32,000 nucleotides of DNA from Trichodesmium erythraeum IMS101 (GCF_000014265.1 NC_008312.1:3420001-3452000); one strand, 5' to 3'; numbered from the stretch's first letter, positions 19,946 through 25,560 are shown. Made by a program: numbers and translations. The notes: a model not told the origin generated them from the letters alone.

Positions 19946-20603
19946 ATGCCTATCTACTTAGCTCAAAAAATTTTACCTGAAAAACTAGATAGGAAAAACT
20001 ATAAAGTAAAAATAGCAACAATAGCTAGTTTATTAGGCCTGAAGATTTAGATCAAGTTACTGTTATGAAAACCCAAGTTTAATAGTAAAAAAAATGATAC
20101 CAATAAATTAGGGTTTTTAGGCGGTGCGATACCTAAATCTTAAAGTAAACTTAGGCGTGTCAATACTTTAGCATAATACCTAATCACAAATAAGGTCTAA
20201 ATTTCTGTAAAGATTATTGGGAAAATATCAAAATTAAAAATTTGATGTCAACTTACAGTTCTTTAACGGTATAATTTAATTACTAGTGGTGTTATTTAAA
20301 GGGGAAAGAACACATAAAGCTTATTTAAGTACATAAAACCACCTAAATAATCCATAAACTCTAAAAGATTACAGGAGCTAGACAATAAATCAAATCTTCT
20401 GTAAAAGTGTTAAAGCCAAAAAAATTATCAATTATTGATTTGGTTTTAATATTAGCTTTTATGGCATAAAATATATTAAGGTAAATCTTAAAAAACTATG
20501 CTTTTATTCAAAGTAAAGCTTGTTTAAAATGCCATAAAAACTGCAGCTAAATAATCGAATCGGGAAGCTATAAAAATTTAAAATAGGGAGCGAAAAAAAT
20601 CAA

Positions 20604-22712
20604 ATGACTATCAAAGCCAGTAGTGGAAGTTCAGTTGTACGTCCGCAATTATATCAAACCGTACCAGCATCAACTATTTCTAAAGCCGAACAACAAGATC
20701 GCTTTCTGGAAAAGGGTGAAATAGACGAGCTAGCAACATTTTTTAATTCAGGAGTTAAACGTTTAGAAATTGCTCAGATATTGACCAATAATTCAGAAAG
20801 AATTGTTTCTGTTGCCGCCAATACTATTTTTACTGGTGGTTCTCCTATGACTTTCTTGGAAAAGCCAGATGTACCAGAAATGGCCATGAGTGCTGTTAGT
20901 ACTAGCACAAACTCAATTTCTGAAGTCATGAACCTGGATGTAGAAAACAAAGGTGGAAATAACTTATTTCAAGGTGTACGCAGCCTATTTAATAATTTAG
21001 CTGCTGGGGGTTCTGGCCCTATACCTACTGGCTTCCGACCAATTCCTGTATCTAAGTATGGCCCCGCTAATATGACTAAATCCTTGCGGGACTTATCATG
21101 GTTTTTACGGTATATTACTTATGCTATTGTGGCCGGGGACTATAATATTCTCTCGGTAAATGTCCGTGGTTTAAAAGAAATTATTGAAAATGCTTGTTCC
21201 ACTGCGGCTACTATTGTGGCTATTCAACAGATGCGACAAGCTTCAATTAAATATTTTCAAGACGAAGAAGCAAAGGATATTGTTGCCCAATACTTTGATG
21301 TAGTTTTGACTGAATTTCGTGGGTCAACACCTTCTAATAAGCAACGTCAGGGTCAAAGTTCAGCTCAACAAGGGCTAGAATTACCACAAATTTATTTCAA
21401 TGCTGCCGAAAAACGGCCCAAGTTTGTGATGAAGCCTGGCTTGTCTAACTTTGAAAAACAAGATGTTGTCAAGGCGGCTTATCGGCAGGTATTTGAACGT
21501 GACATTACCCGAGCTTATAGCCTGAATATTTCTTATCTAGAATCTCAGGTGAAAAACTGCGAAATCTCAATGAAAGAGTTTATTCGTCGTTTGGGCAAAT
21601 CTCCTCTTTATCAGAAACAATTCTATGAGGGATTTGTTAATAGTCGTGTAGTGGAACTGGCAACTCGTCACTTCTTGGGTCGGGGCTTAAGTTCACCAGA
21701 AGAATTTAGGAAGTACTTTGACATTGTTACTAAGGGTGGTTTGTCTGCTTTGGTAGATGCAATGGTGGACTCTCAAGAATACTCTGATTATTTTGGGGAA
21801 GAGACAGTACCATATTTGCGTGGTTTAGGTCAAGAGGCTCAGGAATGTCGGAACTGGGGAGTACAATTTGATTTATTTAATTACAGTGCTCCTTTGCGTA
21901 AAGTACCTCAGTTTGTGACTTTATTTGCTGATTATAATCAACCATTGCCAGACCAGCATGTTTATGGTCAGGGTAATGACCCATTGGAAATTCAGTTTGG
22001 GGCAATATTCGCGAAAGAAACTCGTAACCCTAAAACCCGACCGGCACCTTTTGGTAAAGATACTCGTCGGATTTTAATTCGTCAGGGTGCTGGTATTGAT
22101 AGCCAAATTAGTAACCCTGGTGCTAGAGCTAAAAATCCTGGTTCTCTTGGTCCAAAGGTTTTTAAACTTGATCAAGTTCCTGGAGGTTATGTTGGTAGTG
22201 GTTTTAGTAATTCTGGTGGCAGTAATGGTGCTAGCGTTAAGTTCTCTGAAAGTTCTACTCAAAAGATTATTATTGCTGCTTATCGTCAGGTGTTTGGTCG
22301 GGATGTTTATGATGGTCAACGCCTCAAAAGTGCTGAGAATAAACTTGAAAACGGGGATATTACTGTTCGGGAGTTTATTCGTGTTCTAGCAAAGTCTGAC
22401 ACTTTCAGGAATATGTATTGGACTTCCTTGTATGTATGTAAGGCAGTTGAATATATTCATCGACGGTTGTTAGGTCGTCCAACTTATGGGCGTAAAGAAA
22501 TTAATTATTACTTTGATATCTGTTCTAAGAAAGGTCTGTATGCTTTAGTTGATGCCATTATTGATAGCCAGGAGTATAATGAGGCTTTTGGGGAAGATAC
22601 TATTCCTTATGAACGTTACTTAACTCCTGGTGGTTTGTCTTTACGTAATATAAGGGGCAGTATTGGTAATAAAAATTTGGAAGTTGATAAAGAAATAAAA
22701 CCAAGGTTTTAA
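20604..22712 (+). CDS. apcE: Phycobilisome core-membrane linker ApcE paralogue, short form: phycobiliprotein-like domain with PB-loop plus two REP (PBS-linker) domains, 702 aa
   Basis: The N-terminus is ..[42 protein letters not shown].., canonical for ApcE. The bilin-binding Cys context ..EIIENACS.. is retained (Cys198, nt 21195-21197). The two linker repeats are ..[23 protein letters not shown] and ..[23 protein letters not shown]. The ORF stops right after ..KPRF, where copy 2 continues into a third REP. Confidence 0.9.
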
Positions 22713-22818
22713 GAAAACTATACTTTTATTCAAAATAGAGGGTCTTTGAAGTCTTATAAAAATTAAAAGCCAAAATGTCTGAATAGAAGCCGTAAAAACT
22801 TAAAATAGGAACTGACAA

Positions 22819-25560
22819 ATGACTGTCAATGCAAGTAGTGGAAGTTCAGTTGTACGTCCGCAATTATATCAAACTGTACCAGCATCAACTATTTCTAAAG
22901 CTGAACAACAAGATCGCTTTCTGGAAAAGGGTGAAATAGACGAGCTAGCAACATTTTTTAATTCGGGAGTCAAACGTTTAAAAATTGCTCAAATACTAAC
23001 CAATAATTCAGAAAGAATTGTTTCTGTTGCCGCCAATACTATTTTTGCTGGTGGTTCTCCTATGGCCTTCTTGGAAAAGCCATCTGTACGAGAAATGGCT
23101 ATAAGTCCTGTTGATGCTACAACAACCTCAGTTTCTGAAGGTATGGAGCTAGGTACTATTAGTTATTTAGAGGACAGTGGTAAAGGTAAACTATTTCAAG
23201 GTATACGCAACCTATTTAATAATTTAGCTGCTGGGGGTTCTGGCCCTATACCTGCTGGCTTCCGACCAATTCCTGTATCTAAGTATGGCCCCGCTAATAT
23301 GACTAAATCCTTGCGGGACTTATCATGGTTTTTACGGTATATTACTTATGCTATTGTGGCCGGGGACTATAATATTCTCTCGGTAAATGTCCGTGGTTTA
23401 AAAGAAATTATTGAAAATGCTTGTTCTACTGTCGCTACTATTGTGGCTATCCAACAGATGCGACAAGCTTCAATTAAATATTTTCAAGACGAAGAAGCAA
23501 AGGATATTGTTGCCCAATACTTTGATGTAGTTTTGACTGAATTTCGTGGGTCAACACCTTCTAATAAGCAACGTCAGGGTCAAAGTTCAGCTCAGCAAGG
23601 GCTAGAATTACCACAAATTTATTTCAATGCTGCCGAAAAACGGCCCAAGTTTGTGATGAAGCCTGGTTTGTCTAACTTTGAAAAACAAGATGTTGTCAAG
23701 GCGGCTTATCGGCAGGTATTTGAACGTGATATTACCCGAGCTTATAGCCTGAATATTTCTTATCTAGAATCTCAGGTGAAAAACTGCGAAATCTCAATGA
23801 AAGAGTTTATTCGTCGTTTGGGCAAATCTCCTCTTTATCAGAAACAATTCTATGAGGGATTTGTTAATAGTCGTGTAGTGGAACTGGCAACTCGTCACTT
23901 CTTGGGTCGGGGCTTAAGTTCACCAGAAGAATTTAGGAAGTACTTTGACATTGTTACTAAGGGTGGTTTGTCTGCTTTGGTAGATGCAATGGTGGACTCT
24001 CAAGAATACTCTGATTATTTTGGGGAAGAGACAGTACCATATTTGCGTGGTTTAGGTCAAGAGGCTCAGGAATGTCGGAACTGGGGAGTACAATTTGATT
24101 TATTTAATTACAGTGCTCCTTTGCGTAAAGTACCTCAGTTTGTGACTTTATTTGCTGACTATAATCAACCATTGCCAGACCAGCATGTTTATGGTCAGGG
24201 TAATGACCCATTGGAAATTCAGTTTGGGGCAATATTCGCTAAAGAAACTCGTAACCCTAAAACCCGACCGGCACCTTTTGGTAAAGATACTCGTCGGATT
24301 TTAATTCGTCAGGGTGCTGGTATTGATAGCCAAATTAGTAACCCTGGTGCTAGAGCTAAAAATCCTGGTTCTCTTGGTCCGAAGGTTTTTAAACTTGATC
24401 AAGTTCCTGGAGGTTATGTTGGTAGTGGTTTCAGTAACTTTGGAAGCAGTAATGGTGCTAGCGTTAAGTTCTCTGAAAGTTCTACTCAAAAGATTATTAC
24501 TGCTGCTTATCGTCAGGTGTTTGGTCGGGATGTTTATGATGGTCAACGCCTCAAAAGTGCTGAGAATAAACTTGAAAACGGGGATATTACTGTTCGGGAG
24601 TTTATTCGTGTTCTAGCAAAGTCTGACACTTTCAGGAATATGTATTGGACTTCCTTGTATGTATGTAAGGCAGTTGAATATATTCATCGACGGTTGTTAG
24701 GTCGTCCAACTTATGGGCGTAAAGAAATTAATTATTACTTTGATATCTGTTCTAAGAAAGGTCTGTATGCTTTAGTTGATGCCATTATCGATAGCCAGGA
24801 GTATAATGAGGCTTTTGGGGAAGATACTATTCCTTATGAACGTTACTTAACTCCTGGTGGTTTGTCTTTGCGCAATACAAGGGTAGGCAGTATTGGTAAT
24901 AAAAATCTGCGAGTAGAGAAAGAAGTAACACCAAGGTTTGTGGAGTTGGGAACTCCTAGGATATTTCGCACTGAACCTGATATTAAGTTCCGAGTTAGGC
25001 AAGGTGTTAATAAGCAACGGGAGCAGTGTAAGGTATTTAAGTTGATAAATACTGAAGATCAGCAACAGTTGAATTTAGTTATTGCTGCTGCTTACCGTCA
25101 GATTTTTGAGCGGGATATGCCTCCTTTCATCATGAGGAGTGAGTTCTCTTTTCTGGAGAGTAAGTTAAAGAATAATGATATCAATCTCAAGGAGTTTATT
25201 GAGGAATTAGGTTGTTCTCAAGTTTATATTAAGGAGTTTTACACGCCTTATCCTAATACTAAGGTTATTGAACTGGGTACAAAGCATTTTTTAGGTCGCG
25301 CTCCTCGTGATCAAGTTGAGATTCGCAAGTATAATCAGATTCTAGCAACTTTAGGTATTAAGGGTTTTGTCAATGCTATGGTAAATAGTGATGAATATAT
25401 TGAGCTCTTTGGAGATGATACTGTTCCTTATCGCCGTTTCCCCACTCTCCCTGCTGCTAATTTTCCCAATACTGAAAGACTGTATAATCAGTTGACTAGG
25501 CAGAATGAGGATTTAGTTATACCTAGTTTTGAACCGATATCTTTGACGGATCGCAGTTAA
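22819..25560 (+). CDS. apcE: Phycobilisome core-membrane linker ApcE (LCM), three REP domains, 913 aa
   Basis: The architecture matches 20604..22712, with Cys202 in ENACS, plus a third REP (..[25 protein letters not shown]). A strong terminator follows. Confidence 0.95.

Follow-up and report, generated by a model that had tools for sequence, protein, structure and literature searches.

The locus analysed here lies in a window of 32,000 nucleotides (nt) of the genome of Trichodesmium erythraeum IMS101 (GCF_000014265.1, NC_008312.1:3420001-3452000; all positions below are counted from the first letter of this whole stretch) and carries, head to tail, two copies of apcE, the gene of the phycobilisome core-membrane linker, one coding for a protein with two REP domains and the other for a protein with three. 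The number of REP domains in ApcE is the accepted determinant of core size and, leaving aside far-red light photoacclimation (FaRLiP), the usual assumption is that each cyanobacterium has a single linker and a single type of core. Why, then, does this genome possess two linker genes of different REP number, which have been annotated for a long time under the same name of 'phycobilisome linker polypeptide'? The explanation that we favor, with a probability of roughly 0.7 for the whole of it, is an old tandem duplication of which both products were kept: the two linkers would be expressed from one operon, the 2-REP protein organizing two-cylinder cores and the 3-REP protein three-cylinder cores.

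A tandem pair of core-membrane linker genes

Two open reading frames (ORFs) occupy positions 20604-22712 (copy 1, 702 amino acids, aa) and 22819-25560 (copy 2, 913 aa, the ancestral-type 3-REP linker) of the + strand, to which all features of the pair given below belong; the computed masses of their products are 78,572 Da (78.6 kDa) and 103,224 Da (103.2 kDa). Local DNA alignment delimits a direct tandem unit of about 2.2 kb, 20488-22712, repeated at 22709-24939—the repeat families D1 to D4 give the same pairs—and comprising a 115-nt leader followed by the first 702 codons of apcE. The two units are identical at 2116 of 2213 aligned positions (95.6%) and differ by 97 substitutions and several small indels. 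An original prediction, made from the sequence of the window, had described this repeat with about 100 bp of 5' leader in each unit, and its coordinates prove right to about 12 nt. The 106-nt spacer that separates the two ORFs (22713-22818) is the duplicated leader.

Both proteins carry a phycobiliprotein-like domain (PF00502), accompanied in copy 1 by two REP (PF00427) stretches (Pfam, E = 2e-88 for PF00427) and in copy 2 by three (E = 8e-133), in agreement with NCBIfam. The PF00502 match is split into two stretches in both ORFs (E = 1e-27 and 2e-26), the insert being flanked by a phycocyanin-alpha-like match at aa 23-78 and by an ApcA/ApcB-like match at about aa 152-237. In copy 1 this insert, the PB-loop, extends over about aa 79-151 (20838-21056, from the split matches and the alignment); no other coding part differs so much from one copy to the other, and it has a 4-codon deletion relative to copy 2. 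According to Pfam, REP1 and REP2 lie at 21384-21830 (aa 261-409, also matching the solved REP1 domains 2L06 and 3OSJ) and 22245-22616 (aa 548-671) in copy 1, and at 23611-24057 and 24472-24843 in copy 2. REP3, at 25015-25437 of copy 2 (aa 733-873; Pfam and NCBIfam), is the domain missing from copy 1.

Copy 1 closes with a C-terminal tail of 31 aa (aa 672-702, 22617-22709, as placed by alignments), which is the first part of the REP2-REP3 arm and whose last 22 codons are copy-specific: it ends ...KPRF-TAA at the exact point where copy 2 continues ...PRFVELGTP into REP3. The motif ENACS is kept in both copies, as in all the relatives compared, and its cysteine—Cys198 in copy 1 (codon 21195-21197, located by alignment), Cys202 in copy 2 (codon 23422-23424)—is the predicted site of bilin attachment. 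On the lengths and REP numbers of the two linkers, the uninterrupted frame of copy 1 with its stop right after KPRF, and the presence of the bilin Cys in both copies, the original prediction thus holds entirely.

A duplication shared by the pelagic Trichodesmium

The closest proteins to both linkers belong to Trichodesmium, Okeania and Dapis, a clade where a 3-REP ApcE of 908-918 aa is usual. The original prediction had reasoned from heterocystous cyanobacteria with one four-REP apcE; the organism being Trichodesmium (Microcoleaceae), which is not heterocystous, this baseline is inapplicable, and that of the clade is one 913-aa 3-REP apcE. A survey of apcE copy number and REP count, which the same prediction had called for, finds the junction of the pair in at least four Trichodesmium lineages, and a single 3-REP apcE in Okeania, Dapis, 'Trichodesmium sp. 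MO_231.B1' (which groups with Dapis) and another metagenome-assembled genome (MAG). In two of these relatives (L066 and L069) the single apcE occupies the site where the window has its pair, after the ATP synthase operon and the methyltransferase gene, and copy 2 is 85-88% identical to the syntenic single apcE of Okeania and Dapis. By these comparisons copy 2 is the ordinary gene of its clade. That no apcABC genes adjoin either copy, as had been remarked, is correct but not unusual: the apcE genes of the relatives also have no apcABC alongside.

A TARA scaffold (L063) and the Red Sea MAG R04 (L065) each contain a tandem pair, of 703 and 901 aa, with the upstream synteny conserved; these two loci were assembled independently, and their paralogues are about 85% identical. 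Further 2-REP proteins of 703-707 aa occur in MAG R03 and in ocean metagenomes, and all of them end ...KPRF-stop. We considered a link of the pair to nitrogen fixation, which is weakened by the presence of the 2-REP gene in R03 and R04: these MAGs are non-diazotrophic, so that the pair is not tied to this function.

The junction itself (22708-22714, including the TAA stop at 22710-22712) is informative. The arm codon TTT is fused there to the upstream sequence TAAGAAAAC at a T/TT microhomology; more widely, the arm ...AAACCAAGRTTT is joined to the leader TAAGANAACTATGC, identically in the window, L063 and L065, and with two extra A in L064. Single-copy relatives read ..CCTTAAGAAA.. at the corresponding upstream position, which indicates that the join used the T/TT microhomology and that the TAA stop was supplied by the upstream sequence. 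The same junction, with the stop made at the join, is found in at least four Trichodesmium lineages, including non-diazotrophic ones, and in neighbor-joining (NJ) trees the duplicated lineages are monophyletic with respect to the single-copy L066, Dapis, L069 and Okeania (clade bootstrap 98-100%). One ancient duplication in the common ancestor of the pelagic Trichodesmium is strongly supported by this sequence comparison. The scan of genome contigs gave Okeania, Dapis and taxa farther away but no Trichodesmium proper, whose loci were reached through protein matches; an exact-sequence look-up of both proteins gave no match, and a pattern specific to the junction had 0 matches in the JGI metagenomes.

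Some of the sequences collected are particular. In the thiebautii-like lineage (L064:6085-6600, L068:1-314) the spacer has received an insertion with a 146-aa TnpB-like fragment (PF07282, E = 3e-23), about 35 nt before the start of copy 2, which corresponds to about position 22791 of the window; the contigs diverge beyond the insertion. The 5' 2.1 kb of L068 (ENA k119_786006) carry a thiebautii-like copy 2, about 89.5% identical to the window; its nt 2460-4919, compared with 24940-27398 of the window, show 0 differences in the 206 codons of the REP3 part, consistent with identity over 2.46 kb, and the sequence beyond is unrelated to the window. L068 is most likely a cross-species assembly chimera, or else the trace of a recent transfer; judging it a chimera we did not rely on it, the true copy 2 of that lineage being P0005. 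Besides, L067 and the sequences P0124, P0125 and P0126 (704 aa; P0125 represents 11 member sequences) associate an N-terminus and upstream region of copy-2 type with the tail, stop and downstream region of copy 1. Either the assembly switched repeatedly from one copy to the other within the near-identical body, or these are true recombinant alleles; they were excluded from the trees.

Selection and gene conversion

Nonsynonymous and synonymous divergences (dN and dS) were estimated by the method of Nei and Gojobori. Between orthologues, dS ranges from 0.33 (window versus the thiebautii-like lineage) to 0.53 (window versus L063), with a dN/dS of 0.16-0.24 for copy 1 and 0.19-0.24 for copy 2; in the comparisons with and among single-copy relatives dN/dS is 0.08-0.13. 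The paralogues of L063 and L065 are separated by a dS of 0.30-0.31 with a dN/dS of 0.31-0.33, and both genes are intact. About 4.6-4.8% of the single-base changes in copy 1 would create a stop, and the probability for a neutral copy 1 to stay open over d = 0.15 is about 3e-7. These sequence data show, or at the least strongly support, that purifying selection has maintained both genes in all the Trichodesmium lineages sampled. They also dismiss the idea, entertained in the original prediction, that copy 1 might be a very young partial duplicate, since the junction is shared by lineages dS ~0.45-0.5 apart and the clade IV/V-like paralogues (L063, L065) themselves differ by a dS of about 0.3.

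In these clade IV/V-like loci both linkers evolve faster at the protein level, with a dN to L066 of 0.087-0.095 versus 0.052 in T. erythraeum. Their copy 2 has lost 12 PB-loop residues, and the REP1-REP2 arm of their copy 1 is rewritten (..PKNYLDSQLNDYKSSNSYN..).

Within the window, identity along the unit is uneven: about 75% in the leader, 88% in 20604-20983 (N-terminus and PB-loop), 99% in 20984-22642 and 85% in the last 67 nt. The dS between paralogues shows the same mosaic: it amounts to 0.111 over the 5' part, drops to 0.042 over the body and reaches 0.22 over the 17 final codons. The body differs from the 5' part (Fisher P = 0.0096), but between orthologues dS is even along the sequence (P = 0.67), and the 0.042 of the body contrasts with the 0.33-0.53 separating orthologues of different genomes. 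Whether the NJ tree is built on the phycobiliprotein-domain part or on REP1-REP2, the paralogues pair by lineage with 100% bootstrap. As paralogues that share one junction nevertheless cluster by lineage, gene conversion must have acted after speciation, and the near-identity of the copies in this genome is due to it. On the other hand, ten alignment columns separate all copies 1 from all copies 2: seven in the PB-loop, one close to the bilin Cys—three residues after it, aa 201 of copy 1—and two in the C-terminal tail. It is therefore shown, or strongly supported on sequence grounds, that repeated gene conversion homogenizes the REP1-REP2 body within a genome, the PB-loop, the near-Cys residue and the tail staying copy-specific.

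The tuf and psbA copies are bacterial examples of concerted evolution by gene conversion. Our pair behaves as concertedly evolving bacterial tandem paralogues do, with clustering by genome despite a duplication that precedes speciation and with mosaic identity along the unit; it differs from them in that one partner is truncated, with a different predicted structural output, and in that the ends of the unit escape homogenization.

Expression of the two genes

Is the short linker made? The original prediction asked for peptides of copy 1, and this check has in effect been run in the whole-cell proteomics of Snow et al. (2015; PMC4642986): in Table E of that article, Tery_2209 is listed in 24 of 24 runs (5.6-26 fmol on column) and Tery_2210 in 4 of 24 (0.45-9.4 fmol). 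From the ng/fmol ratios of the same table we computed 78.86 kDa for Tery_2209 (78.9 kDa) and 103.5-103.6 kDa for Tery_2210; the proteins of the window, with carbamidomethyl on 5 and 7 Cys, would weigh 78,857 and 103,623 Da, matching these values, and the gene order of the window fits the numbering from Tery_2198 to Tery_2210 as it appears in that source. With copy 1 as Tery_2209 and copy 2 as Tery_2210, the published proteomics shows that the copy 1 protein is made in cells. Tryptic digestion would yield 32 peptides common to both proteins, 25 unique to copy 2 (16 of them in the REP3 part) and 9 unique to copy 1. Copy 2, if abundant, should outrank copy 1, so that Table E suggests the reverse, and the short linker appears predominant in T. 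erythraeum IMS101 cultures.

The signals around the pair are compatible with a single transcript. On the + strand of 19500-26500 the only terminator-like hairpin is found after copy 2, 37 nt past its stop (25597-25636: 13 pairs at 25597-25626, then a T-run), and the scan detected no terminator-like site in the 106-nt spacer. Upstream of copy 1, about 650 nt are conserved in seven taxa with a mean column identity of 76%; the single-copy relatives and the other Trichodesmium loci become homologous to the window from about 19955-19987, and the conserved non-coding region that precedes the duplicated unit (19955-20487) is a candidate for the position of the ancestral apcE promoter and 5' untranslated region. 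Since only the last 115 nt of this conserved stretch were duplicated, copy 2 probably lost the ancestral promoter and is probably read through from copy 1. The best sigma-70-like match of the scan lies at 19704-19731, farther upstream than the conserved region, and promoter-like sites are not more numerous in the scan than expected by chance.

A block TTTGATGTCAACCTACAGTATTTTAACTGTAGAAT, containing the perfect inverted repeat CTACAGT-N6-ACTGTAG, is conserved upstream of apcE in L066, L069, L001, L002 and L063; it could be a candidate promoter with its operator. At 20230-20300 of the window, about 330 nt upstream of copy 1 and outside the duplicated unit, the block is degenerate (TTACAGTTCTTTAACGGTATAAT) and ends in TATAAT.

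The spacer of the window has a 7-nt deletion and displays the Shine-Dalgarno-like motif AGGAAC in place of AGGGAG. We had considered that this altered region weakens the translation of copy 2, an idea that we withdrew: the deletion also moves AGGA to a more usual spacing.

From REP number to core geometry

The structure of the S. elongatus PCC 7942 core (PDB 9WG7; Zheng et al. 2025) gives the closest view of what a 2-REP linker may do. REP1 and REP2 are placed there as in three-cylinder cores, where REP3 organizes the top allophycocyanin cylinder; the natural 2-REP ApcE ends in the REP2-REP3 loop and its tail holds the top rods, the equivalent of the copy 1 tail contacting CpcG and CpcB; and the two-cylinder core has 30% fewer bilins and no OCP site. 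Copy 1 also ends in the REP2-REP3 loop, 31 residues past REP2, at a ..PRF motif also kept by the ApcE of T. vulcanus (7VEA) and Anabaena 7120 (7EYD) and by the 914-aa LCM of 8WQL. Its residues 1-691 align with 1-684 of the 705-aa PCC 7942 ApcE, an alignment that ends 21 residues before the C-terminus of that chain and 11 before that of copy 1.

The course of events is well supported as far as the genes themselves are concerned. A 2.2-kb tandem duplication copied the last 115 nt of the leader and codons 1-702, placing the copy ahead of apcE. The join in the REP2-REP3 arm made an in-frame TAA at once, by which the upstream copy became a complete 2-REP core-membrane linker, endowed with the original upstream region where the ancestral promoter presumably resides. 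Both genes were then retained under purifying selection, conversion keeping the body alike while the ends stayed copy-specific. As to the way the system works, the pair would most likely be transcribed as one operon, from a promoter upstream of copy 1 to the terminator after copy 2. By analogy with Synechococcus elongatus PCC 7942, the 2-REP protein would nucleate two basal allophycocyanin cylinders without a top cylinder, and the 3-REP protein the standard three-cylinder core. This assignment is the best-supported reading of the roles of the two copies, and two core geometries in one cell are plausible.

Taking all these elements jointly, one may tentatively imagine a two-linker antenna produced from one operon, in which the derived 2-REP form is the major linker and the ancestral 3-REP form is minor or conditional. 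Most cores would be two-cylinder, poor in allophycocyanin and devoid of the OCP site as in S. elongatus; the copy-specific PB-loop and tail would dock and hold rods differently, and conversion would keep the body interchangeable. So complete a picture is less likely than not.

Several points count against our explanation. We infer the core geometry from the REP number only, and the residues Q696, R699, E701, R704 and R705, which hold the rods in PCC 7942, are situated beyond the region aligned with copy 1. Both copies have a dN/dS roughly double the values of the single-copy relatives, which reveals some relaxation of constraint. The correspondence of copy 1 with Tery_2209 and of copy 2 with Tery_2210 comes from masses and gene-order numbering, not from a sequence match, and the dominance of copy 1 depends, at the level of a published table, on the way the software assigned shared peptides in label-free proteomics, a technique that hardly separates two proteins with 32 tryptic peptides in common. 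As to co-transcription, it is deduced from sequence scans in which promoter matches are not above chance.

What else could account for the pair? The main alternative to separate populations of two- and three-cylinder cores is that both linkers enter the same cores, a core containing two such molecules. One 2-REP protein combined with one 3-REP protein, or the two forms competing, would then result in a top cylinder of half length or determine how many complete cores are made, the short copy acting as a stoichiometric modifier. The REP1-REP2 bodies being near-identical through conversion, both forms should indeed fit the same basal cylinders; the copies are probably co-transcribed, and red-algal cores with a shortened top cylinder do exist (Zheng et al. 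2025). However, the imbalance between 24 and 4 runs out of 24 suggests that most cores hold two short linkers anyway, and we regard mixed cores as unlikely, though they deserve more credit than the explanations that follow. The high identity of the two units could evoke an assembly artefact, or a very recent duplication specific to the strain, but this has a negligible probability: the pair is carried by independent assemblies of other species (L063 from TARA, L065 from the Red Sea) with paralogues 15% diverged, the units differ by the 97 substitutions and several indels already mentioned, and two distinct UniProt proteins of the expected masses are reported as detected in Table E of PMC4642986.

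It could also be argued that copy 1 has no function of its own, its frame being kept intact through overwriting by conversion from a selected copy 2 and its expression being a by-product of the ancestral promoter. Conversion is clearly active in this genome, with bodies 99% identical, and the chance survival of the ORF has here a probability of about 0.15 at d = 0.02, which falls to only about 0.008 at d = 0.05. This explanation nonetheless meets serious obstacles. In L063 and L065, where the paralogues have reached a dS of about 0.3 without conversion, copy 1 is intact with a dN/dS of about 0.3, against a probability of about 3e-7 that no stop appears; four lineages preserve the copy-specific residues of the PB-loop, of the tail and of the position near the Cys; and the tail and stop are not repairable from copy 2, yet every copy ends ...KPRF-stop, with tail residues that vary slightly by lineage. 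A functionless copy 1 is thus very improbable, and we retain the hypothesis of two linkers both kept in use, with two types of core.

Relation to known linkers

Copy 2 resembles the canonical 3-REP ApcE (Arthrospira 8WQL, 914 aa; Synechocystis 6803, 7SC7; Synechococcus 7002, 7EXT) in its length class, PF00502 domain with PB-loop, Cys and three PF00427 domains, and differs from it in nothing essential: its particularities are a dN/dS about two-fold higher and first 702 codons that periodically overwrite copy 1 or are overwritten by it. Copy 1 resembles the 2-REP ApcE of S. elongatus PCC 7942/6301 (705 aa, bicylindrical) in its domain plan, its length of 702 aa, its Cys and its end inside the REP2-REP3 arm. 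The two short linkers have nevertheless separate origins, copy 1 being nested within the 3-REP ApcE of its own genus. Moreover, copy 1 coexists with a 3-REP paralogue, unlike the linker of S. elongatus, a species which we take to have a single linker gene.

The ApcE2 of FaRLiP lacks the bilin Cys, whereas copy 1 retains Cys198. It is likewise a second apcE in its genome, with two REP domains and bicylindrical cores (PDB 8UHE). The FaRLiP cluster (rfpABC, apcA2/B2/D2, psbA3 and others) is not found at copy 1, around which lie the ATP synthase operon, a methyltransferase gene, the remnant of a GmrSD gene, and DO-GTPase and VWA genes; and FaRLiP ApcE2 forms a deep separate clade, while copy 1 is about 95% identical to its partner and groups with it. 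The distinction from ApcE2 drawn in the original prediction is thus well founded, and it agrees with Gan et al. (2014), who place T. erythraeum IMS101 among four non-FaRLiP organisms with a two-REP ApcE, the protein falling in the ApcE1 clade.

The 2-REP ApcE of IMS101 had therefore already been noted, in one sentence of that article; the tandem pair, its conservation and its concerted evolution are apparently undescribed. In the literature covered, a coverage outside which most subscription-journal papers fall, we found no description of the 3-REP partner, the tandem pair, the genus-wide conservation or the concerted evolution, and no paper naming Tery_2209 or Tery_2210 in its main text.

Neighborhood of the pair

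The genes of the window follow the order atpG, atpA, atpH, atpF, atpG', atpE, atpB, atpI, methyltransferase, two GmrSD fragments and the two linker genes. The neighbors of copy 1 had been described as riddled with stops. Decay is indeed seen in the GmrSD_N fragment at 17683-18132, an ORF of 149 aa that covers positions 59-198 of PF03235 and to which an intact gene of 278 aa corresponds in L066, and in a weak DO-GTPase fragment at 26586-27344, but it is modest and the upstream ATP synthase operon is intact. The remnants of the GmrSD-type restriction endonuclease gene, which span 17683-18727, are the clearest decayed neighbor of the pair.

Farther from the linkers, 5419-7837 is a region of 2.4 kb with no ORF of at least 80 aa, a G+C content of 24-29% and a 31-nt tandem duplication at 6855-6916, features typical of this genome, which is reported to have a large non-coding fraction. 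A 167-aa ORF with transposase-type helix-turn-helix matches (HTH_32, HTH_23, HTH_33) occupies 1090-1593, and a 601-aa subtilase with a DUF5942 C-terminal domain is encoded on the minus strand at 2919-4724. Rfam and tRNA scans of the window found nothing.

Significance

Among the nitrogen fixers of the open ocean, Trichodesmium is the main one that forms colonies. This entire genus, whose biogeochemical importance is global, has long kept side by side two Cys-bearing linkers of different REP number, of which the shorter seems to be the one mostly made. This bears on the way the phycobilisomes of Trichodesmium are modelled: the size of the core, the nitrogen cost of the antenna, the length of the energy-transfer path and the possible loss of the OCP site. 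The pair also offers a natural experiment, a truncated linker arising in one step, and a clear example of concerted evolution where homogenization spares only the functionally distinctive ends; and all this can be tested directly in a culturable strain.

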